A stretch of 64,000 bases of DNA from a bacterium. Its GTDB lineage: Bacteria; Omnitrophota; Gorgyraeia; Duberdicusellales; 4484-171. Shown in pieces: positions 18,389 through 33,327 of this stretch; positions within the stretch are counted from its first letter, which is position 1, and each line of letters opens with the position of its first letter. Made by a program: the position numbers and the translations under genes. The stretch is from positions 8,359-72,358 of the forward strand of contig JAJYOP010000006.1 in NCBI GenBank assembly GCA_021796115.1, in the 5' to 3' direction. Under the pieces are notes generated by a model. The model did no database searches and was not told the DNA's origin. It saw only the letters and a program-made list of their open reading frames with translations.

Positions 18389-18441
18389 TCCATAGTCGAC
18401 AAATTTAAGACTACGGATTGTCGACTAAAGGAAGGAGGTTT

Positions 18442-19416
18442 ATGCGTAATAAAATACTATCTTTGCTGGTTTTATCTTTTTTGGTTTGTGCCAGTCTTTT
18501 TGCTGATACCATTCTACTTAAATCCGGCAAAACAGTTGAGGGAAAAATAATAGAAAAGACCAGTGGCTCGGTAAAATTAGAAATCGAAGGCATACCCTTG
18601 ACTTATTATATTAGCGATATAGATTCAATAAATGGGCAAAAGATAGCTCAAAATTCCGGAAGTTCTAATCCTACTGCAATATCATCCACTCCCCGGGAAA
18701 ACCCCTCTATTCCGGAGCAGCGGAAAGTCGCAGCAACCGGAATAACTACAACTAATAATCAGACTCCTTCTGCCGGTGAAACGGATTTGTTTAAAGAAAA
18801 AGAAGTAAAAAATGAACAATCAGAAGCGAATCCGGAAAATAAGTCATATTTAGATTATTCAGACAGCAGAAAATTATCTTTGAATAAAATGGCTCCCGGC
18901 CAGGCCGGCATTGCGGCAGGATTTCTTGCCGGCATCTTCTTGTTTATGGCAATCTTTATTATTGTAACCTATATTTATTCCGCAATCTGCCTTTCCTTTA
19001 TCGCAAAAAAAACAAACTCCGGGCCTTCCTTCCTGGCTTGGATTCCTTTTGCGCATCATTTTCTAAGATTCAAAATTGCAAACACGAGCTATCTCTGGAT
19101 ATTTATTCCCATAGGTGTATTCATTATCGGTTTAATAAGCGGAATGTCTTCTGCTATAATGGGTGCCTTAAGCGGAGCGAGCAAATTTCCGGCCGCAGCA
19201 GTTAATCCTTTAACTATAATAATAAATTTTTTCCTTAGTGCAGTTTATGCTGCTTTTTCCGGTTTTGTCTGGTATAAAATCGCCCTGGCAAGAAATAAAC
19301 CAAGCTGGATTGGCGCTTTGATGGCGATAAGTATTTTAAATGGCCTGCCAATTATCTCTTTCTTATCGATTGTCGGCTGTTTAGTGATAATGGGTTATTT
19401 GGCTTTTGCCGAATAA
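18442..19416 (+). CDS. exported/membrane protein of unknown function
   Basis: ATG 18442 after aggagg. Signal peptide, low-complexity linker, C-terminal multi-TM region. Confidence 0.6.
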   Translation: MRNKILSLLVLSFLVCASLFADTILLKSGKTVEGKIIEKTSGSVKLEIEGIPLTYYISDIDSINGQKIAQNSGSSNPTAISSTPRENPSIPEQRKVAATGITTTNNQTPSAGETDLFKEKEVKNEQSEANPENKSYLDYSDSRKLSLNKMAPGQAGIAAGFLAGIFLFMAIFIIVTYIYSAICLSFIAKKTNSGPSFLAWIPFAHHFLRFKIANTSYLWIFIPIGVFIIGLISGMSSAIMGALSGASKFPAAAVNPLTIIINFFLSAVYAAFSGFVWYKIALARNKPSWIGALMAISILNGLPIISFLSIVGCLVIMGYLAFAE

Positions 19417-21971: not shown

Positions 21972-21999
21972 TTGACAAAGAAATTTTTTTTAGTATATT
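21972..21999 (+). promoter_or_regulatory. sigma70-like promoter
   Basis: TTGACA (21972-21977), 16-nt spacer, TATATT (21994-21999). Confidence 0.4.
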
Positions 22000-22368: not shown

Positions 22369-22587
22369 ATGGCAAAGGCGAGAACTATTAAATGCCCGGA
22401 ATGCCAAGATGAGTTTGAGTTAGAAGATTATTTAGAGGTGGGAGATACTACTTTTTGCGTAAGTTGCGATACGGAGCTTAAAGTTGTTAAGCTTGACCCT
22501 CCTCAAGTTGAGATAGTTGCTGTCAATGAAAATGAAGATGAAGGGCAAGATTTTGATGAAGATGACGCGGAAGATGAAGATTTTTAA
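22369..22587 (+). CDS. LysW-like zinc-ribbon protein with long acidic C-terminal tail
   Basis: IKCPECQDEFELEDYLEVGDTTFCVSCDTELKVVKLDPPQVE parallels Thermus LysW (CPECGAELRLEN..VCEDCGAELEVVGLDPLRLE). Tail is NENEDEGQDFDEDDAEDEDF. Confidence 0.65.
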   Translation: MAKARTIKCPECQDEFELEDYLEVGDTTFCVSCDTELKVVKLDPPQVEIVAVNENEDEGQDFDEDDAEDEDF

Positions 22588-22600
22588 AAAGGAGGATTAA

Positions 22601-23050
22601 ATGTTTAAAAAGACTTTACCCGTATTCTTAATCGCAATAGCCCTGTTGTCGCTGCCTAGTTTTGCTGAAGAAAAAAAGAGCAACGTTCCGCCGCAAGCTG
22701 CTAATACTACCGCACAAACCGCAGTTTCCAAAGAGCAGCCAAAGGCCCAAGTTCAGCCACAAACTACGCCGCAAAGTGCCCCTCAGGAAGAAGTCGTTAA
22801 GGGCGTAATAAAAGAGATAGCTAATGACGGAAGCTATGTAATTGTTAACGATACAAAAATCCTTACGACCAAAGAATTTCTGGAAGATTCATACCTCGAA
22901 GTTGGAGACAATGTAGAAATCACGGCAGAAAAAACTGACCAGGGCCTTAAGGCAAAGAGCTATAACTATATTTTTGAGGAAGAAGGCTCCACAGCAACTC
23001 CGGATGAGCCGTCTAATGACAGCACTGAAGAGTCGCCTCAAGGGTATTAA
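22601..23050 (+). CDS. secreted acidic protein of unknown function
   Basis: Signal peptide LLSLPSFA-EE, then a Q/P-rich linker and a small globular domain. Confidence 0.6.
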   Translation: MFKKTLPVFLIAIALLSLPSFAEEKKSNVPPQAANTTAQTAVSKEQPKAQVQPQTTPQSAPQEEVVKGVIKEIANDGSYVIVNDTKILTTKEFLEDSYLEVGDNVEITAEKTDQGLKAKSYNYIFEEEGSTATPDEPSNDSTEESPQGY

Positions 23051-23070
23051 TCATTTGGAATGATTATCAA

Positions 23071-23108
23071 ATAGCCCTCTCATATTCGTAATGAAAGGGC
23101 TATTTTTA
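23071..23108 (+). terminator. rho-independent terminator
   Basis: Stem atagccct/agggctat followed by ttttt. Confidence 0.6.
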
Positions 23109-23110
23109 TT

Positions 23111-23228
23111 AATCCCTTTTGCCAGAATTTCACGGGCTTCGTCCGTGGATGAATAGCGGAAAGGGGCGTCGCCTGCGCTTTAAGCGGGTAAAAAAAAGAC
23201 CTACAGGTTTTGCCTGTGCGGGCTCCAG
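23111..23228 (+). repeat. R1 repeat copy D
   Basis: aatcccttttgccagaatttcacgggcttcgtccgtg...gcggaaaggggcgtcgcctgcgctttaagcgggtaaaaaaaagacctacaggttttgcctgtgcgggctccag. ORF 23119..23313 is an artefact. Confidence 0.85.
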
Positions 23229-23331
23229 TGAGCACGTGATTTTTTCAAGCGACCGAAGGAAGTGGAGAAAAAATCACAGTGCGAATTACCCCTCAAGCGA
23301 AGCGAAGGGGTAATGCAAAGAGAGGAGAGGC

Positions 23332-24477
23332 TTGAAGTTAAGCAAATATAAAAATTTGAACACTTCTCTGGAGGATGAGCCCGACGGATGTAAAAATGAA
23401 ATATCCCAAAAAGAAAGCTGGCATAGCACATATTCGAATTCGCTAAAAAATATAGAAGACCTGTCAAAATTTATTTTCATTCCCGAAGCCGAAAAACCTG
23501 CCTTAAAACAAGTAATCAGAACTTTCCACATGAGAATACCTTTGTATTATCTTTCTTTAGCAAAAAATTTAAATAACTCTAACGACCCTATACGCAGGCA
23601 ATGTATCCCTTCTATTGAAGAGATAGAAAGAGAAATCCATGAAAAAATAGATCCGCTTGGCGAAGAAAAAACTTCGCCGGCACCTTGCCTTATCCATCGC
23701 TATCCCGACCGGGCTCTTTTGATAGTAACCGGAAGATGTTTTATGTATTGCCGCCACTGCACGCGAAAAAGATTATGGAGAAGCAGAATACCCGAGCCAG
23801 CCCTAAAGGATATTGAATTAGCTCTTGCCTACGTAAAGGAGAACAAAGAAATAAGAGAGATAATAGTATCCGGAGGAGACCCGCTAACTCTCCCCACAGA
23901 AAAATTAGATTACATCCTTTCTCTCTTAACGAACATTAAAAATATTGAGGTTATACGTATAGGCACAAGAGCGCCTGTGGTATTTCCTCAAAGAATAGAC
24001 GAAAATTTATGTAAAGTCATTGAAAAATACGAAAATCTCTGGATTAATACCCAATTCAACCATCCTGATGAAATTACCGCGCAATCGATACTTGCCTGCA
24101 AAATGCTTCAACGCTGCGGTATTGCCATAAGCAATCAATCGGTGCTTCTAAAAGGTATAAACGACAATATCAAAACAATGCTTGAGTTGTGCCATAAACT
24201 TCAAAATATAAGGGTGAGGCCGTACTATCTTTATCAGTGTGATCCGGTTATAGGTGCGCATCATTTTAGAACTTCTATATGGAGGGGCATAGATATTCTT
24301 GAAAATATGCGAGGACATACCAGCGGTATGTGTATACCTACCTTTGTCGTTGATGGTATAGACGGTAAAGGGAAAATTCCTATCGGGCCCAACTACGTTC
24401 TTTCTGTTTCGCCTGAAGGGCTTACACTTAGAAATTACAGAAACGAAATTTTGTTTTATTTTAATCCTAAGGAATAG
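23332..24477 (+). CDS. KamA-family radical SAM aminomutase (lysine 2,3-aminomutase-like)
   Basis: CFMYCRHCTRKR cluster motif, GGDPL, YLYQCD..GAHHFR. TTG start after agaggagagg. Confidence 0.85.
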   Translation: MKLSKYKNLNTSLEDEPDGCKNEISQKESWHSTYSNSLKNIEDLSKFIFIPEAEKPALKQVIRTFHMRIPLYYLSLAKNLNNSNDPIRRQCIPSIEEIEREIHEKIDPLGEEKTSPAPCLIHRYPDRALLIVTGRCFMYCRHCTRKRLWRSRIPEPALKDIELALAYVKENKEIREIIVSGGDPLTLPTEKLDYILSLLTNIKNIEVIRIGTRAPVVFPQRIDENLCKVIEKYENLWINTQFNHPDEITAQSILACKMLQRCGIAISNQSVLLKGINDNIKTMLELCHKLQNIRVRPYYLYQCDPVIGAHHFRTSIWRGIDILENMRGHTSGMCIPTFVVDGIDGKGKIPIGPNYVLSVSPEGLTLRNYRNEILFYFNPKE

Positions 24478-24598
24478 TAATAGAGATAGAATACGAAATT
24501 ATGAAGGACGATGGACGAGAGATGAAGGGCGATTCTATCGTCTTTCATCTCTCTTTATTCGTCCATTGTAACTCGAGTTTTTCGGAGCGATAACCGCC

Positions 24599-25591
24599 TT
24601 GCTGAATAAAATAGCGATAACCTTCAATCTAAAAAAAAGCGGCGCAAAGGACGATAGTTTTGCTGAATACGATGAGATAGAAACTATCGATGCCTTGGAG
24701 AAAGAATTGAAATTTTTTGCGCATTCAATTGTTCGTATCGAACAAACCCCAGATATAATAAAAAATCTAATAAAAGAAAAACCGGATTTTGTTTTTAACA
24801 TCGCAGAAGGCATAAATTCTGGCCGCGCAAGAGAATCCCAAGTTCCCGCTGTATTGGAAAGTTTAAATATACCCTATTCCGGTTCGGATCCGATAGCCCT
24901 GGGAATCGCTCTTGATAAATACCTTACAAATATTATATTAAAATATGCCGGGGTGCCGGTTCCTTTTGCGTTTATTATAAAAGATAAAGGCACTTTACCT
25001 TGCTATAAGAATATTTTCAGGAATAAAAAGAAATTTATAGTAAAACCCCGCTGGGAAGGTTCGTCAAAAGGCATATTTTCTGATTCCGTTGTTTGTGATT
25101 TCGAAAAATTAAAAGAAAAATTTTTTTATATAGTTTCTAAATATAAGCAACCGGCATTGGTTGAAGAATTCCTCCAGAAGGACGAAATTACTGTTGGCGT
25201 TTGCGGCAACGCTGAGCCGGTCATTTTAGGCATGATGCGCTTAAGCCAGGCCAATGGCAAGGGGCTATTTTTATATTGCCAGGAAAATAAACGTGATTGG
25301 CAAGCTAAAGTCAAATATGAATCGAAAAATTCAATACCCAAAAAAATTCAAAAAATCATAAAAGAAAACGCCATCAAGGCTTTTACGGCGCTTGAACTAA
25401 GAGACGTTGCGCGTATGGATTTCAGGCTTGATAAAAATAACATCCCCCATGTAATAGATGTTAACCCTTTACCGGGATTATCGCCCATTTACAGTGATTT
25501 GCCGATACTTTGCAAATTGGAAAACAAAAACTACAGCTATCTGATAAAAAAAATAATGTCTGAAACCTTAAAAAGAAATCGTTTAGCTTGA
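24599..25591 (+). CDS. ATP-grasp ligase, D-Ala-D-Ala-ligase-like (paralog 1)
   Basis: FNIAEGINSGRARESQVPAVLESLNIPYSGS, KPRWEGSSKGI and DVNPLPGL are typical Ddl-type ATP-grasp blocks. Confidence 0.8.
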   Translation: MLNKIAITFNLKKSGAKDDSFAEYDEIETIDALEKELKFFAHSIVRIEQTPDIIKNLIKEKPDFVFNIAEGINSGRARESQVPAVLESLNIPYSGSDPIALGIALDKYLTNIILKYAGVPVPFAFIIKDKGTLPCYKNIFRNKKKFIVKPRWEGSSKGIFSDSVVCDFEKLKEKFFYIVSKYKQPALVEEFLQKDEITVGVCGNAEPVILGMMRLSQANGKGLFLYCQENKRDWQAKVKYESKNSIPKKIQKIIKENAIKAFTALELRDVARMDFRLDKNNIPHVIDVNPLPGLSPIYSDLPILCKLENKNYSYLIKKIMSETLKRNRLA

Positions 25592-25604
25592 TCTTATAAA
25601 AAAA

Positions 25605-26903
25605 ATGAAAAAAATATTGCTGCTGTTTTTTCTAATTATAATTTGCCGTCCGGGCTTCTGCTCTGATGAGATAAATTTTTCGGCAAAAGACCGAGTTATT
25701 ATCTTTTCACCGCATCCGGACGATGAAATTATCGCCCTGGGAGGGTTAATCCAGAAAGTTTTAAAATCCGGAGCGAAACTAAAAATCGTTTACCTTACTA
25801 ACGGAGAATATAACGAAATAAATTATTTGTTTTATAAAAAACAGGCAGCTGTGTCGCCAGCAGGTTTTATCAAGATAGGAAAGGTTAGGGAAAAAGAAGC
25901 CTATGATGCGACTGGCGCTTTAGGCGTTGACAAAAAAGATTTAATATTTTTAGGCTATCCGGATAGATTTACAGAGGCCATCCTTACCAGCTTTTGGAAT
26001 AAAAAATGGCCCGCATCAAGCATGCTTACGCATATAAGCAAGGTTCCGTATAAAGACGCTTTATCTTTCGGCGCGCCTTATATAGGTGAAAGCATACTTA
26101 ACGATATAAAAAATGTTTTAAATGATTTTAAGCCGACAAAAGTTTTTCTATCGAGTCCTCAAGATACGAATCCCGACCATCGTGCTATGTATGTTTTTCT
26201 AAACGTTGCCTTGCTTGATTTAAAAGATAAATTCGTCCCGGATGCGCAATTTTCCTATTTGGTGCATAAGCCAGGCTGGCCAAAGGGAAAAAAATACCTT
26301 CCTTCTTTTGAGTTGGCTCCTCCGGAGGAGTTTACCGCTAGCGACGTAACTTGGATTAAGGTCCCGTTGAGCAGAAACGAGGTGGAGGATAAATATAAGG
26401 CATTGCTTCTTTATAGAAGCCAGCTTTCTCTGGGCAAGTATTATCTTGCGAGTTTTGTCAGATCAAACGAACTTTTATGCAAATATCCGGTTATCGCTAT
26501 GCGGCCCAAAGTTAAGAATGAAAGCAATAAATTTGAATCTAACCTGGTTTCCAGAATAACTTATTCAAGGGACGATGAATTTTTATACATTAATATTATA
26601 TTACGCAAAGCTATAGCGCCGACTATAAAGGCCGATATATATTTATTAGGTTACAGCTCAACTAAAGATTTTTCTCTTATGCCCAAAATATTTTTTAAAG
26701 TAAAAGACCGAAGCGCGATAATATATGATAAACGAAAAAGAATTTTTATCGATAATTTAAAAACCATTTCACGAGGCAATGCCATATTGATTAAATTTCC
26801 CCTTAAGGCACTGGATAATCCGCAATACGTTTTCAGCAGAATTATTCTTAAAGGAAATTTGCTCGCTTTGTATGCTTCAGCGTGGAGAATACTTGAGCTC
26901 TGA
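25605..26903 (+). CDS. PIG-L/LmbE-family de-N-acetylase with signal peptide and extra C-terminal domain
   Basis: FSPHPDDEIIALGG and NPDH motifs. N-terminal MKKILLLFFLIIICRPGFCS. About 130 extra C-terminal residues. Confidence 0.8.
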   Translation: MKKILLLFFLIIICRPGFCSDEINFSAKDRVIIFSPHPDDEIIALGGLIQKVLKSGAKLKIVYLTNGEYNEINYLFYKKQAAVSPAGFIKIGKVREKEAYDATGALGVDKKDLIFLGYPDRFTEAILTSFWNKKWPASSMLTHISKVPYKDALSFGAPYIGESILNDIKNVLNDFKPTKVFLSSPQDTNPDHRAMYVFLNVALLDLKDKFVPDAQFSYLVHKPGWPKGKKYLPSFELAPPEEFTASDVTWIKVPLSRNEVEDKYKALLLYRSQLSLGKYYLASFVRSNELLCKYPVIAMRPKVKNESNKFESNLVSRITYSRDDEFLYINIILRKAIAPTIKADIYLLGYSSTKDFSLMPKIFFKVKDRSAIIYDKRKRIFIDNLKTISRGNAILIKFPLKALDNPQYVFSRIILKGNLLALYASAWRILEL

Positions 26904-26911
26904 TTCGTAAC

Positions 26912-27898
26912 ATGGCAAAAAAACATACCATCCTAATTACGCTTGCTAAAGAAAATACCGGCAGAAAAGACATATCGGATGTTTTAAGGTGCAAAAAATC
27001 TATTTGTAAAATTTTATCCCAAAAAAAGACAAGGCCCAAAGTACTTTTCGTTAAAAGAGATGATTTCAACGCTGCTCAAAAACTTAAAAAAACAATTTTA
27101 AATAAAAAACCTTCCTGTATTTTTAATCTTTTCGAAGGTTTCAGCGATGAACCGTCTAAAGAGGCGGAATTCGTTAAAATTCTCGAAACTTTGGAGATTC
27201 CTTTCACCGGTAACTCGTCGTTTACGCTTAATTCATGTTTGGATAAGGCAAAGGCAAAGCGTATTTTAAAAGCTAAAGGCATTAAGGTGGCCGACGGCGT
27301 TATCGTAAAAAATATTAAAAAAATAAAAATGCCGGAAATAAAATTTCCTGTTTTTGTAAAGCCCCGTTTTGAAGATGCCAGCGTGGGCATAAACCGCGAT
27401 TCTCTTGTTTTTAACCAAGGAAAATTATTGAGTCTTTTAAAAACGCGCTTGAATGAATTTCCCGCAGGGCTTCTCGTCGAAAGTTTTCTGCCCGGTAAAG
27501 AATACAGCGTGGCATTTCTGGGTAACGGCCCGTATGAAGTACTAGGCATATCCACGATAGATTATTCACGATATAAAAAATTGCCGCATTTTTTAACTTA
27601 CGCTTCAAAATGGGATAAAATGGCAGGCGAATTCAAAAAAATTTTGCCTTACTCTAACGCCAGGATTGGCAAGAAATTAAAAATAATAATAAACAAAGCC
27701 CAAAAAGCCGCAACCGCGCTTGGTTGCAGGGGGTATTTCAGGGTAGATTTACGGGAAAAAAACGGATACGTTTTTGTGATAGACGTAAACCCTAACCCCG
27801 ATATAAATTGCGACAGCGGGTACATAAAACAAGCCTGCAAGAAAGGTTATAGCTATGCCGGAATTATCGAAAAAATAATTAATTTAGCCGGCGCCTGA
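26912..27898 (+). CDS. ATP-grasp ligase, D-Ala-D-Ala-ligase-like (paralog 2)
   Basis: FNLFEGFSDEPSKEAEFVKILETLEIPFTGN, KPRFEDASVGI, DVNPNPD. Confidence 0.8.
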   Translation: MAKKHTILITLAKENTGRKDISDVLRCKKSICKILSQKKTRPKVLFVKRDDFNAAQKLKKTILNKKPSCIFNLFEGFSDEPSKEAEFVKILETLEIPFTGNSSFTLNSCLDKAKAKRILKAKGIKVADGVIVKNIKKIKMPEIKFPVFVKPRFEDASVGINRDSLVFNQGKLLSLLKTRLNEFPAGLLVESFLPGKEYSVAFLGNGPYEVLGISTIDYSRYKKLPHFLTYASKWDKMAGEFKKILPYSNARIGKKLKIIINKAQKAATALGCRGYFRVDLREKNGYVFVIDVNPNPDINCDSGYIKQACKKGYSYAGIIEKIINLAGA

Positions 27899-27963: not shown

Positions 27964-28179
27964 ATGGAAGAGCAAAATAAAATTCAAACTACCGCAACGG
28001 ATAAAACATCCAATACCGGCAAAACGGCAGCAAAAATAATTCTCGGAATAATATTCATTATTTTAGGGTTATTCGCCCTTATACGCTGGTGGCCAAGCCT
28101 GGTTACTCTCATCAAAGGGTTTATAGGTTTATTTTTGATTCTTGCCGGGGCAATTACTTTAGCGGTTGCCAAAGAATAA
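27964..28179 (+). CDS. small two-TM membrane protein
   Basis: aggaggtgg SD. Two hydrophobic helices. Confidence 0.5.
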   Translation: MEEQNKIQTTATDKTSNTGKTAAKIILGIIFIILGLFALIRWWPSLVTLIKGFIGLFLILAGAITLAVAKE

Positions 28180-30068: not shown

Positions 30069-30129
30069 TAAATTTCTGGTTAAGATTAATACTGTACCCT
30101 TAACCTTGCCCCCTGTACTTTGGAGAAAC

Positions 30130-33100
30130 ATGGATAAAGATTACGCCTTACAAAACGACGGAAGTTTTATTATAAAAAATTACAACAGCAAATACCCGTT
30201 CTCTAATTTTCTTCCCGGTGTTGCCGGCGAATGGGGTGTACCGATGTGGGTTTTTTACGTAAACCGCGCTCAAGGCATCGCCAGCTTCGGTATAAAAGAT
30301 AAAGACCATTCAATCAGCGAATTTTTCCCGGCCAATAACTCCTATTCTTTCACGCCCCTTGTGGGCTTCAGGACATTTTTGAAAATCAATAATGAGATTA
30401 ATTATGAGCCTTTCCGTGTTATTTCCGATTATGAACGGGAAGAGGAAATGGTTATCAAAAGCGCATCATTCCAAATAAAGAAAATAAACAAAGAGCTGGG
30501 CCTCGAATTTAACATTAAGTATTTCACCCTTCCTAATACGCCGGTCGGCGCTTTAGCAAGGATTCTTTCCATAAAAAATATTTCGCATAAAGAAGCAGAC
30601 CTTGAGGTACTTGATGGCCTGTCAAAAATAGTTCCCTTTGGCTTAAGCCATGTCCTTCTTAAGGATTTAGCGCGTACCCTTGAAGCCTGGATGCGCGTTT
30701 CGATAGGGGGCAGCCTTTCGCTTTTCCGGTTAATCGTTGACCCGAAAGATTCGAGCCAGACGAAATTCGTCGATGGCGCAAATTTTAATTATGCCTTTTA
30801 CGAAGATGATTCGAAAAAGATTTCGCCCTACTTAATCGTTGACCCGGGCAGCATATTTTCTTACGATACGTCTTACTCCTGGCCGATAAATTTCTTTAAG
30901 AAAGAGTTTAAAGCCCCGCTCAATCAGATAACCTGCGGCAAAACTCCGTGTGCTTTCAGCTATTTCAAATGGAAGCTTTCGCCGGGCGAAGCGAAAAATT
31001 TCTATAGCATTTTTGGCGCCTCTTTCAAGTCGGAGCTGGTAGAAAATTTTTCGAAAAATATAAACAGTGCATTTTTAAAAGCAAAAGAAAATGAGAATGA
31101 AAAAATAATCGAGGATATAAAAAACTCTTGCCTATGCGTTTCTGCCAGCAAAGAGCTCGATCATTATGTAAAGTGTTCCTACCTCGATAATGTTTTAAGA
31201 GGGGGGCTGCCTTACTCGTTTAATACGGTTACAAAAGATAAATATAATGTTTATTATATTTATTCGCGTAAGCACGGCGATCTGGAAAGGGATTATAATA
31301 AATTCAAACTTCTGCCCTCGCCTTTCAGCGAAGGAGAAGCGAATTACCGGGATATTAACCAGAATCGCAGGATAGATTTATTTTTTAACCCGCATATCGG
31401 TAAAAACAACATTATTTACTTTTTAAATCTTTTAAAAATTGACGGATATAATCCTCTGGTGGTTAAAGGGGAACGGCTTTTCTTTTCGAAAAAAGACGCG
31501 CTCGAGATTCTTAAACAATTCGGCATAAACAAAGATGAAAAAATTATTTCATTGATGATCTGCGGTTTTCACCTTGGTGATTTCTTCAAGCTTCTTAAAG
31601 AAAGGGGAATAAATGTTCTGAAAGGACAGCTTCTGGCAAGTACCATTGTCCAAAGAGCATCCAGGGAGCCATTTGCTTCGCACGGGGAAGGTTACTGGAT
31701 TGACCACTGGAGATATAATCTTGACCTTATTGAAAATTTCTTAAGCATTTATCCCGACCAGCTTAAAAGCCTGTTTCTAACCAGGGGCTATCTATTTTGG
31801 GATGACGAATTTAGAGTTAGGCCTAGATTTGCCAGGCTTCACGTGAAAGATAAAAAAGTCTATCAGTGGCATTCTGTGGAAGAGGTGGCGGCAAAAAAAG
31901 ATGAGCTGGGTAAGAGGGATAAATTTGCCAACTTCCTGCGTAACAAGAAGGGCAATATTTACCGCACAAACCTTTTTGAGAAAATTTTAACCCTGATTTT
32001 GAATAAAGCTTCGAGCCTTGACCCGGAAGGCATCGGTGTTGAGATGGAGGCGGATAAGCCTGGCTGGTGTGATTCCTTAAACGGCCTGCCGGCGCTATTT
32101 GGCTCATCGCTTTGCGAAACGCTTGAATTAAAACGCGCCTGTATCCTGATAAAGGAAACATTGGAAGAATTGAAACTTAAAGAAGTGGCTGTTTCCGATG
32201 AAGTTTATTCATTCTACGTAAAGATAGAGAGACTGCTTAAGAACTATCTGGATAGAAATGATAAAAAGCGTGATTTTGACTGGTGGGAAAAAAGTAATTT
32301 AGTAAAAGAAAAATTCAGGGAAGAGGCTTTTCGGACGCTTTCCGGTAAGACAAAAAAAATCTCCGCTAAAGATCTCAAAGAGTTTCTCGCGGGACTTATT
32401 GAAAAGTTGGATTACGGTATAGCCAAAGCGAAAGATTCGACCGGAATGTATACCACATACTTTACTTATGAGCTAAAAAAATACCGGCTGATGAATAAAC
32501 AGGTGGTACCGCTAGAATTTATAAAAAGAGCCTTACCGTATTTTCTTGAAGGGCCAATGCACGCTTTAAGAACCGAAAAAGACCCTCTAACGTATCAGGC
32601 GGTGAGAGTGTCGCGTCTTTTTGACGAAAAGCTCAAAAGCTATCGCCTTAACGATTCGCTTAAGAACGAGTCGCTTGAAATCGGAAGGAGCCGGATTTTT
32701 ATCCCGGGTTGGCTTGAAAATGAATCCATATGGCTGCATATGGAGTATAAGTATCTTTTAGAGGTCTTAAAGAACGGGCTTTATGATGAGTTTTTCGCTG
32801 ACTTTAAAAATTGCGCCGTCTGTTTCTTTGATCCCGAACGTTACGGAAGAAACATTCTTGAAAATTCTTCTTTCATTGTCAGCAGCGCTTATCCTGACAG
32901 AAGCCTCTGGGGAAAAGGATTTGTTGCGCGCTTGTCCGGCGCAACGGTTGAGCTCTTAAATATTCTTTTTGTGATGTATCTGGGTAAAACCCCATTTTTT
33001 ATGAATGACAGGGGCGAACTTTGCCTGCGTTTTACACCGATTTTAAAAGGAACTTTTTTTACGAAAACCGAAACCAGGATTGATACCGGAAAAAAGGAAA

Positions 33101-33327
33101 TTACTTTAGAGAAAAATTCATTTGCTTTTAAATTATTTTCAAGCACGCTTGTTGTCTATCATAATTCGGCGAGAAAAGATACTTTTAATAAGGATTGCCG
33201 CGTCGAAAAAATTGTAGTTACTGCCGCAGATAAAGAGCAGGTAATCAATGGCGACGTTTTGCCGCCGCCATTGAGTAGCCTCATACGGGAAATGAAGTTT
33301 GAGCGGGTGGATGTGTATTTTAAGTGA
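30130..33327 (+). CDS. very large (about 1065 aa) cytoplasmic protein of unknown function
   Basis: Uninterrupted ORF with no signal peptide or TM and no motif I can assign. ATG 30130 is preferred over the TTG inside the upstream repeat. Confidence 0.7.
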   Translation: MDKDYALQNDGSFIIKNYNSKYPFSNFLPGVAGEWGVPMWVFYVNRAQGIASFGIKDKDHSISEFFPANNSYSFTPLVGFRTFLKINNEINYEPFRVISDYEREEEMVIKSASFQIKKINKELGLEFNIKYFTLPNTPVGALARILSIKNISHKEADLEVLDGLSKIVPFGLSHVLLKDLARTLEAWMRVSIGGSLSLFRLIVDPKDSSQTKFVDGANFNYAFYEDDSKKISPYLIVDPGSIFSYDTSYSWPINFFKKEFKAPLNQITCGKTPCAFSYFKWKLSPGEAKNFYSIFGASFKSELVENFSKNINSAFLKAKENENEKIIEDIKNSCLCVSASKELDHYVKCSYLDNVLRGGLPYSFNTVTKDKYNVYYIYSRKHGDLERDYNKFKLLPSPFSEGEANYRDINQNRRIDLFFNPHIGKNNIIYFLNLLKIDGYNPLVVKGERLFFSKKDALEILKQFGINKDEKIISLMICGFHLGDFFKLLKERGINVLKGQLLASTIVQRASREPFASHGEGYWIDHWRYNLDLIENFLSIYPDQLKSLFLTRGYLFWDDEFRVRPRFARLHVKDKKVYQWHSVEEVAAKKDELGKRDKFANFLRNKKGNIYRTNLFEKILTLILNKASSLDPEGIGVEMEADKPGWCDSLNGLPALFGSSLCETLELKRACILIKETLEELKLKEVAVSDEVYSFYVKIERLLKNYLDRNDKKRDFDWWEKSNLVKEKFREEAFRTLSGKTKKISAKDLKEFLAGLIEKLDYGIAKAKDSTGMYTTYFTYELKKYRLMNKQVVPLEFIKRALPYFLEGPMHALRTEKDPLTYQAVRVSRLFDEKLKSYRLNDSLKNESLEIGRSRIFIPGWLENESIWLHMEYKYLLEVLKNGLYDEFFADFKNCAVCFFDPERYGRNILENSSFIVSSAYPDRSLWGKGFVARLSGATVELLNILFVMYLGKTPFFMNDRGELCLRFTPILKGTFFTKTETRIDTGKKEITLEKNSFAFKLFSSTLVVYHNSARKDTFNKDCRVEKIVVTAADKEQVINGDVLPPPLSSLIREMKFERVDVYFK

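Follow-up and report, generated by a model that had tools for sequence, protein, structure and literature searches.

The window described here is a stretch of 64,000 nucleotides (nt) from a bacterium of the Omnitrophota (GenBank assembly GCA_021796115.1, contig JAJYOP010000006.1, positions 8,359 to 72,358 of the forward strand). The system in question lies at positions 23332 to 27898, where a gene for a KamA-family aminomutase is followed by genes for two Ddl-like ATP-grasp ligases, here called AG1 and AG2, with a gene for a PIG-L/LmbE-family deacetylase between them. The recurring unit in other genomes is KamA with AG1 and AG2, usually together with a small GNAT-family acetyltransferase, and not KamA/ATP-grasp/PIG-L/ATP-grasp. 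We propose, with moderate confidence, that this cassette ligates beta-lysine in an ATP-dependent manner into a small amide or peptide, which would usually be N-acetylated, and that the PIG-L protein acts elsewhere. A previous sequence-only reading of the region had suggested a beta-amino-acid ligation pathway with an aminosugar as a possible acceptor; the link between beta-lysine supply and the ligases is retained from it, on the basis of active-site residues and gene fusions, and the aminosugar acceptor is not supported.

Gene layout in the window

Coordinates refer to the 64-kb window. All four open reading frames (ORFs) of the cassette region lie on the plus strand, exactly where they had been placed before:

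23332-24477, plus strand: KamA-family radical-SAM/pyridoxal phosphate (PLP) lysine 2,3-aminomutase, short form, 381 amino acids (aa), TTG start; predicted supplier of beta-lysine
24599-25591, plus strand: AG1, Ddl-like ATP-grasp ligase, 330 aa, PF07478; orthologue of the domain that is fused to KamA elsewhere
25605-26903, plus strand: PIG-L/LmbE-family metal-dependent de-N-acetylase, predicted to be exported, 432 aa, PF02585, with a C-terminal beta-sandwich domain
26912-27898, plus strand: AG2, second Ddl-like ATP-grasp ligase, 328 aa, PF07478

The gap between AG1 and PIG-L is 13 nt (25591 to 25605) and that between PIG-L and AG2 is 8 nt (26903 to 26912); both values, reported earlier, proved real when the coordinates were rechecked. 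The spacer between KamA and AG1 measures 121 nt and contains a hairpin of high stability, so that the description of the region as a tight cassette applies to AG1/PIG-L/AG2 only and not to KamA.

Conservation, gene order and gene fusions

Relatives were collected with a profile of 28 AG1 homologues, using one genome per species, and the neighbours of the best 80 of 117 confirmed relatives were classed by tblastn. The arrangements among these 80 loci were as follows:

KamA-AG1-AG2-GNAT: 32 loci
AG1-AG2-GNAT-KamA: 17 loci
AG1-AG2-GNAT: 13 loci
KamA-AG1-AG2: 7 loci
PIG-L next to AG1: 6 loci (4 KamA-AG1-PIG-L-AG2, 1 KamA-AG1-PIG-L, 1 AG1-PIG-L-AG2)
KamA-AG1-GNAT: 3 loci
KamA-AG1: 1 locus
AG1-AG2: 1 locus

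The two PIG-L loci with an incomplete arrangement are cut off by a contig end, and the single KamA-AG1 and AG1-AG2 loci are probably incomplete as well, at least one of them ending at a contig edge. In 62 of the 80 loci the AG1 and AG2 genes are immediate neighbours, with the GNAT gene after them; the AG1 relatives in the 80 loci are 44-75% identical. The hosts are labeled as Omnitrophota, 'Planctomycetia', Thermodesulfobacteriota and Synergistota (including Acetomicrobium, Aminivibrio and Thermovirgaceae), and one locus belongs to the complete genome of the cultured strain M3-1 (CP159918). Further look-ups located the cassette in Ca. Magnetoovum (Nitrospirota) and in a Thermoplasmatota archaeon.

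KamA and AG1 form one uninterrupted ORF of 718-814 aa in nine of the surveyed loci, in which Pfam sees both domain sets. A database search with a fusion query returned at least 60 distinct clusters (90% identity) that join Radical_SAM/LAM_C to Dala_Dala_lig_C. Regarding the clusters with fused KamA and AG1, about 39 are Omnitrophota-like at 53-99% identity, and Ca. Magnetoovum and a Thermoplasmatota archaeon are found in a more divergent set (34-47% identity). The order in Magnetoovum is fused KamA-AG1, AG2, GNAT. In the archaeal locus (L092, 1037-9613) the fused KamA-AG1 is followed by a fusion of AG2 with GNAT, which places the four activities on two polypeptides; AG2 and GNAT are likewise fused in a locus from the Synergistaceae (L054). 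A triple fusion of 944 aa (L091, 6001-8835) combines a peptidase S51 domain (cyanophycinase / dipeptidase E family) with AG1 and KamA. The fusions argue strongly that KamA, AG1, AG2 and GNAT serve one pathway, and those of KamA with AG1 suggest that the KamA product is a substrate of AG1.

The earlier view of KamA and the two ATP-grasp paralogues as a conserved functional unit is thus borne out by their synteny in several phyla and by the KamA-AG1 fusions. As for the four-gene order with the deacetylase, KamA-AG1-AG2 recurs across phyla and the PIG-L gene accompanies it only in the clade to which the window belongs (the window clade).

Two observations were made beside the fused genes. The archaeal cassette adjoins homocitrate-synthase-like and aconitase-family genes, through which lysine may be supplied via the aminoadipate route, and the triple fusion is preceded by an overlapping ORF of 440 aa with no Pfam match.

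The KamA aminomutase

The KamA protein of the window matched the Pfam families Radical_SAM and LAM_C and passed the family model TIGR00238 (308 bits, cut-off 199). Regarding the subtype models, the best score was obtained with the AblA equivalog TIGR03820 (445 bits, cut-off 525, not passed), followed by glutamate 2,3-aminomutase TIGR04368 (396 bits, cut-off 650, not passed), the arginine-type model (346 bits) and EpmB TIGR03821 (244 bits, cut-off 369, not passed). The cassette KamA of Synergistota passes the AblA cut-off (571 vs 525 bits). Residues 136-147 of the window protein (CFMYCRHCTRKR) contain the CxxxCRHCTRKR motif, as had been read from the letters.

Alignment to the lysine 2,3-aminomutase of C. 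subterminale (2A5H; E = 9e-109) showed that the cluster cysteines C136, C140 and C143 are kept and that R145, D304, D341 and K348 correspond to R134, D293, D330 and K337 of 2A5H. The three cysteines and the equivalents of these four residues are invariant in 62 of 62 cassette KamA proteins. In 2A5H K337 is the PLP-binding lysine, R134 binds the carboxylate, and D293 and D330 bind the epsilon-ammonium group of lysine; both aspartates are replaced in glutamate 2,3-aminomutase (by Lys and Asn). Because both lysine-binding aspartates are kept, the cassette aminomutase is, as judged from these residues, of the lysine type, which answers in favor of lysine the choice between a lysine-type and a glutamate-type enzyme that had been posed for it. 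The glutamate type was rejected on the presence of both aspartates and on the TIGR04368 score (396 vs 650).

The alignment stops at residue 368 of the 416-residue 2A5H chain, where the window protein ends, and the equivalent of Cys268 is Asn. The C-terminal extension of the long clostridial enzymes, which holds their zinc site, is therefore absent, in agreement with the short form of 381 aa noted before.

An assignment to EpmB, raised earlier as the case that would count against a ligation pathway should the gene lie beside efp or epmA, was discarded on the TIGR03821 score (244 vs 369) and on the gene context. A tblastn search of the window and of 89 loci with E. coli EF-P gave no match, and no efp, epmA or mur genes were found in them.

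The ATP-grasp ligases

Both ligases matched Dala_Dala_lig_C (PF07478), AG1 with E = 4e-25 and AG2 with E = 2.8e-20, and they share 34% identity, in keeping with their description as two divergent Ddl-like paralogues. Their relatives in the PDB are Ddl enzymes only (E = 1e-17 to 1e-19). With the best Ddl model of NCBIfam, NF002378, AG1 scored 128 bits and AG2 110 bits (cut-off 243, not passed), and NCBIfam holds no equivalog that covers AG1, AG2 or the cassette GNAT. Among the homologues, AG1 (n = 61) and AG2 (n = 62) separate as clean orthologous groups with a minimum bit-score gap of 142, which means that the duplication is old and that both copies are under selection.

Residue numbering follows E. 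coli DdlB. The ATP/Mg catalytic residues K97, K144, E180, E187, R255, D257 and N272 are conserved in the 61 AG1 and 62 AG2 sequences; the E270 position is occupied by Asp in 61 of 61 AG1 proteins, and by Asp (55 of 62) or Glu (7 of 62) in AG2. In the D-Ala pocket H63 is replaced by Glu and Y216 by Trp in both groups. L282 is replaced by an invariant Asp in AG1 and by Gly in AG2, S281 is mostly kept, and G276 is replaced by Asp in AG2. The added acidic pocket residues (E63 in both, D282 in AG1, D276 in AG2) would fit a cationic substrate such as beta-lysine. AG1 is predicted to ligate beta-lysine and AG2 to form a second amide bond.

Judged by scores of about half the cut-off and by the altered pocket, AG1 and AG2 are not bona fide Ddl enzymes. 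This disposes of the second case held to count against the pathway, that of ordinary peptidoglycan ligases, and fits the absence of mur genes reported above. Source annotations name the ligases 'D-alanine--D-alanine ligase' or 'ATP-grasp domain-containing protein'; the former name is very probably wrong.

On these data, a mere chance juxtaposition, with KamA serving lysine fermentation or EF-P and the ATP-grasp proteins being ordinary D-Ala-D-Ala ligases, is hardly credible. It would agree with the source annotation and with the part that KamA enzymes also play in lysine fermentation, a common trait of Synergistota. However, cross-phylum synteny links the genes and the fusions effectively refute it, the Ddl scores (128 and 110 vs 243) are accompanied by an altered D-Ala pocket, the EpmB score is low with no efp nearby, and kamD/kamE-type genes did not show up among the recurrent neighbours.

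AG2 homologues also gave weak matches to cyanophycin synthetase, which bears on a product of another kind: an N-capped oligo-beta-lysine or a cyanophycin-like polymer of Asp and beta-Lys, serving as a nitrogen store or polycation. Two paralogous ligases could divide initiation and elongation between them, and the S51 domain in the triple fusion belongs to the cyanophycinase / dipeptidase E family. That fusion is a single case, however, the Mur-ligase-like second domain of cyanophycin synthetase is missing, and a capping GNAT with a compact set of two ligases fits a defined small product better, so we regard a polymer as very unlikely.

The GNAT acetyltransferase

The GNAT of the cassette is a RimI-like protein of 150-170 aa, with weak matches to RimI/AAC(6')-type models only; no AblB-family model match was listed for it among the cassette relatives, and an identification as AblB was rejected on these results. 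A hidden Markov model (HMM) of 32 cassette GNAT proteins gave no match across the 64 kb of the window, not even at E <= 10, and thus no copy hidden elsewhere in the window was found.

The PIG-L deacetylase

PF02585 matched residues 33-199 of the PIG-L protein (E = 3e-25, 89.5 bits, cut-off 28.2), and about 230 more residues follow. Among 31 PIG-L orthologues the HPDDE and DxNxDH motifs do not vary, nor do H37, D40 and H192. An AlphaFold2 model (mean predicted local distance difference test score 89, predicted template modeling score 0.89) shows an N-terminal LmbE-type domain and an extra all-beta domain at about residues 300-432. In Foldseek searches the N-terminal domain matched MshB, BshB and diacetylchitobiose deacetylase (Dac) with E = 1e-11 to 1e-8, and the C-terminal domain gave no significant structural match in the PDB. 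Scores with the MshB and BshB equivalog models were 25-38 bits (cut-offs 182-224, not passed).

A signal-peptide-like N-terminus, consisting of a positive stretch and a hydrophobic segment, often with an AxA-like site, was present in 31 of 31 orthologues, as judged by sequence pattern. Such a pattern is typical of exported proteins, and the catalytic domain should be outside the cytoplasm. Both the additional C-terminal domain and the signal-like N-terminus had been recognized from the single sequence, and the caveat attached to them, namely that an exported deacetylase does not readily meet ATP-grasp enzymes that work inside the cell, turned out to be the decisive point.

Full-length relatives of the PIG-L protein form more than 120 clusters above 335 bits, of which all that carry a taxon name are labeled Omnitrophota or Omnitrophica. 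One locus (L002) has the same whole arrangement as the window, with a PIG-L protein of 61% identity and overlapping coding regions. In two others (L004/L005) a PIG-L gene (49% identity) occurs without KamA and ATP-grasp genes and with the same flanks: a LysW-like zinc ribbon and a secreted protein of 136-149 aa upstream, and a membrane protein of 72 aa and a patatin downstream. In a further one (L006, 41% identity) it stands alone in unrelated context. Within the survey, PIG-L is next to AG1 in 6 of 80 loci (L010-L015), all from the window clade, and on every contig that extends as far as AG2 it stands between the two ligase genes; no PIG-L gene was found in the fetched flanks of the other 74 survey loci.

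Because of the signal-like N-terminus and the occurrence without the cassette, the PIG-L protein is unlikely to be a cytoplasmic partner of the ATP-grasp enzymes. It is probably a passenger gene that became embedded between the ligases in the window clade only. Its position is explained most simply if the PIG-L/72-aa protein/patatin block once adjoined the cassette and a local rearrangement in one clade put PIG-L between AG1 and AG2. Its earlier inclusion as a pathway member is accordingly not supported, and neither is the mycothiol/bacillithiol logic of deacetylating an aminosugar before acylating it, for which neither a cytoplasmic deacetylase nor co-inheritance with the ligases was found.

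Proposed pathway

In the proposed pathway KamA would isomerize L-lysine to beta-lysine, as its conserved active-site residues imply. AG1 would then activate a carboxylate as an acyl phosphate and make an amide bond involving beta-lysine, and AG2 would form a second amide bond. In most genomes the RimI-like GNAT would finally acetylate a free amine. A small peptide or amide of the cytoplasm, containing beta-lysine and usually N-acetylated, would be the product. In the window clade the PIG-L gene, which in many Omnitrophota stands by itself, is probably co-transcribed, and its protein would act on an N-acetylated substrate of the envelope or periplasm, outside the beta-lysine pathway.

Several observations weigh against this proposal. 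We know of no characterized enzyme of the AG1 or AG2 family. A role of the product as an osmolyte would be drawn from analogy only, and fresh water or groundwater is the source of many of the host genomes. In the window clade the GNAT is missing, so the product there may differ from that of the canonical cassette. A protein of the HDAC/acetylpolyamine-amidohydrolase type (PF00850), of 580 aa and with an unassigned N-terminal domain of about 260 aa, adjoins the canonical KamA-AG1-AG2-GNAT cassette in four loci from two phyla; as this is a deacetylase-type neighbour from a superfamily other than PIG-L, deacetylation may belong to the biology of the pathway. The gain of PIG-L and the loss of GNAT coincide perfectly in the survey. 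Finally, the order AG1-PIG-L-AG2 persists in every window-clade locus that reaches that far, with PIG-L diverging down to 56% identity, and the tight packing with the ligases (13 and 8 nt here, overlap in L002) is kept despite the divergence, so that a functional link is possible.

The last two points, together with the intact catalytic motifs and the fold shared with MshB/BshB, would suit a true membership of PIG-L in the window clade, in which it would de-N-acetylate an aminosugar or other acceptor to which the ligases add beta-lysine, giving a beta-lysyl-aminosugar or a decorated envelope glycan. We consider this distinctly improbable: orthologues exist without the cassette, with the same flanks or alone elsewhere; none is near the cassette in the remaining 74 loci of the survey; five phyla have a complete and conserved cassette that lacks PIG-L; and all 31 orthologues have signal-like N-termini, whereas ATP-grasp enzymes need cytoplasmic ATP.

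The genes of the HDAC-type proteins are located as follows; an HMM comparison of their N-terminal domain gave no match that would make it a copy of the cassette GNAT:

L018, 3803-5545
L038, 4506-6251, minus strand
L055, 10432-12168
L083, 10611-12353

The LysW-like protein and a possible macromolecular acceptor

Three small genes flank the cassette in the window and are given for context, not as core members:

22369-22587, plus strand: LysW-like zinc-ribbon protein, 72 aa, PF21344
22601-23050, plus strand: secreted protein, 149 aa, signal-like N-terminus
27964-28179, plus strand: two-helix membrane protein, 71 aa, conserved in its place between PIG-L/AG2 and the patatin gene

The LysW-like protein matched PF21344 (Zn_ribbon_LysW) with E = 2.3e-8 and has a long acidic tail that ends in Phe. 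A homologue lies upstream of kamA in six distinct cassette loci (seven entries, as L001 is the window's own contig); others are about 5 kb or more from the cassette (L021, L028), and one is found in L004, where there is no cassette. Most homologues next to the cassette have Phe or Tyr as the last residue of the tail, whereas LysW uses a terminal Glu.

These data bear on the reading that the ligases modify a macromolecule, either by beta-lysylating a protein carboxylate, such as the LysW-like acidic tail, according to a carrier or RimK/TTL-like logic, or by acting on a cell-wall peptide. The position of the acidic-tailed zinc ribbon two genes upstream in the window and in several Omnitrophota loci agrees with it, as do a weak match of AG1 to TTL (E = 0.009), the modification of protein C-termini by the ATP-grasp enzymes RimK, LysX and TTL, and the fact that the nearest relative of the ligases is the cell-wall enzyme Ddl. 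However, the loci from Synergistota, Nitrospirota and the archaeon have no LysW-like gene, whereas L004 has one without the cassette, its tails mostly end in Phe/Tyr and not in the Glu of LysW, the ligases are of the Ddl type and not of the RimK/LysX type, and no efp, epmA or mur genes were found in the window or the 89 loci. A major facilitator superfamily (MFS) transporter by the cassette in eight Synergistota loci suits a small molecule better, and modification of a macromolecule is unlikely. The Phe-terminated tail, the Ddl-type ligases and the lack of linkage outside some Omnitrophota argue against a LysW/LysX carrier system in particular.

A more specific version, in which the ligases would load a macromolecular acceptor first with beta-lysine and next with a second unit, is given little credence. 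The acceptor in the window clade would be either the LysW-like acidic tail, as a new carrier or tail-modification system, or an envelope glycan intermediate deacetylated by PIG-L. If the glycan acceptor were true, the exchange of GNAT for PIG-L in the window clade would be a functional rewiring and not an accident of gene order.

The LysW-like gene and the gene of the small secreted protein occur as a pair upstream of the cassette or of PIG-L alone (homologues in L002, L004, L010, L012, L032 and L039), and 14 loci have a homologue of the 149-aa secreted protein beside the cassette or beside a lone PIG-L gene. The C-terminus of the small secreted protein is acidic and ends in Tyr/Trp in most homologues. 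For the 71-aa membrane protein (27964-28179) a precomputed Pfam match to MamI is on record; our own Pfam scan returned nothing at E <= 0.001.

Transcript features and other neighbours

The hairpin in the spacer between KamA and AG1 was characterized by RNA folding:

24485-24583, plus strand: near-perfect hairpin of about 100 nt

Its folding energy is -46.3 kcal/mol (z = -5.4), and 0 of 200 shuffled sequences were as stable. A scan for terminators picked it out as terminator-like; the stem has 17 bp and the T tail is weak. Partial termination, attenuation or stabilization of the RNA may be its role, and it could uncouple the expression of kamA from that of the downstream genes. It occurs once in the window and was thus dismissed as a repeated element; it belongs to no Rfam family, with weak matches to unrelated hairpin-shaped microRNA precursor families. 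At gathering thresholds Rfam reports three tRNAs and nothing else in the window, and a permissive Rfam scan of 22950-24700 yielded sub-threshold matches only, including GA-cis (24 bits vs 34.7).

The leader of kamA folds well (z = -4.7), and it was dropped as a riboswitch candidate because it is not conserved among the window-clade loci. A hairpin with a T-run at about 23070-23110 lies downstream of the 149-aa secreted-protein gene; this gene together with the hairpin and T-run is the upstream border of the kamA transcription unit. Identical promoter-like hexamer pairs are present at 21972 and 27914, and since the surrounding DNA is dissimilar they were set aside as a coincidence.

Regarding the neighbours of the cassette in other genomes, a regulator with an ArsR/SmtB-type helix-turn-helix lies just upstream of kamA in eight Omnitrophota-type loci (L016, L023, L027, L035, L036, L039, L055, L061). 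In the eight Synergistota loci the MFS transporter gene is close to the cassette and on the other strand, in most cases directly behind kamA. Other lineage-restricted neighbours are a 4-alpha-glucanotransferase-like gene and an encapsulin-like set with a rubrerythrin-like gene, both named by sequence reading only, and an aminotransferase; with the MFS gene, these recurrent neighbours gave no clear functional clue. Within the window, an ORF of 1073 aa (30106-33327, plus strand) has no Pfam match and is syntenic in L002 (1063 aa, likewise no Pfam match), and an ORF of 332 aa (18418-19416, plus strand) has no Pfam match either.

Comparison with known systems

The ablA and ablB genes make N-epsilon-acetyl-beta-lysine (PMC1224877), and bacterial ablA genes have been placed under the control of a Na+ riboswitch (PMC9337991). 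The cassette resembles this system in having a KamA-type lysine 2,3-aminomutase and a GNAT in one operon, and the window KamA scores best with the AblA model. Unlike it, the cassette has two ATP-grasp ligases between the aminomutase and the acetyltransferase or fused to them, its GNAT is RimI-like with no AblB match, and the window clade has no GNAT.

Ngg acetylates glutamine and forms a peptide bond to give the osmolyte N-acetylglutaminylglutamine amide (NAGGN) (PMC8070244). By analogy, the cassette may likewise acetylate and ligate an amino acid non-ribosomally, and the AG2-GNAT fusions (L054, L092) would unite both activities in one protein. In contrast to Ngg, the substrate would be beta-lysine and not glutamine, and the cassette lacks an AsnO-type amidotransferase.

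With Ddl/Van ligases AG1 and AG2 share the PF07478 fold and domain and the ATP/Mg residues, but they reach about half of the NCBIfam cut-offs, differ in the pocket (H63 to E, Y216 to W, L282 to D/G, G276 to D), and are always paired and linked or fused to KamA and GNAT with no mur genes nearby. Carnosine synthase and BacD/YwfE use ATP-grasp acyl-phosphate chemistry to make di- and tripeptides from free amino acids, carnosine synthase with beta-alanine. This likeness, amide ligation by an ATP-grasp enzyme that includes a beta-amino acid, may serve as a lead only; no specific sequence relationship to AG1 or AG2 was found, Ddl being the nearest family. To our knowledge, no ligase of the carnosine synthase or BacD type is coupled or fused to a radical-SAM aminomutase.

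The PIG-L protein of the window has the fold and the metal-binding motifs of MshB and BshB. It differs from them in scoring far under the equivalog cut-offs, in its predicted signal peptide and extra beta-sandwich domain, and in that there is no conserved adjacent glycosyltransferase-ligase logic and no co-inheritance with the ligases. As in the EpmB/EpmA system, the aminomutase is of the short form without the C-terminal extension; its EpmB score, however, is below its AblA score, efp and epmA were not found in the window or the 89 loci, and the partner ligases are ATP-grasp enzymes and not paralogues of lysyl-tRNA synthetase.

Meaning of the cassette

No description of a cassette of KamA and ATP-grasp genes was found in the searchable full-text literature, which leaves most subscription journals outside its coverage; within that range, the earlier statement that it is undescribed holds. 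Its chemistry combines known kinds of enzyme, namely an aminomutase, ATP-grasp ligases and a GNAT. If the proposal is true, the ribosome- and nonribosomal-peptide-synthetase-independent ligation of beta-lysine by two dedicated ATP-grasp enzymes would be a new branch of beta-lysine chemistry. The natural fusions hint at which enzyme acts on the KamA product, and since cultured carriers exist (members of the Synergistota and strain M3-1, CP159918), the question is directly testable. The forms in Nitrospirota and Thermoplasmatota are fused and more divergent. The conservation of AG1 (44-75%) over Omnitrophota, Synergistota and Thermodesulfobacteriota points to a physiologically important metabolite in these mostly uncultured lineages.

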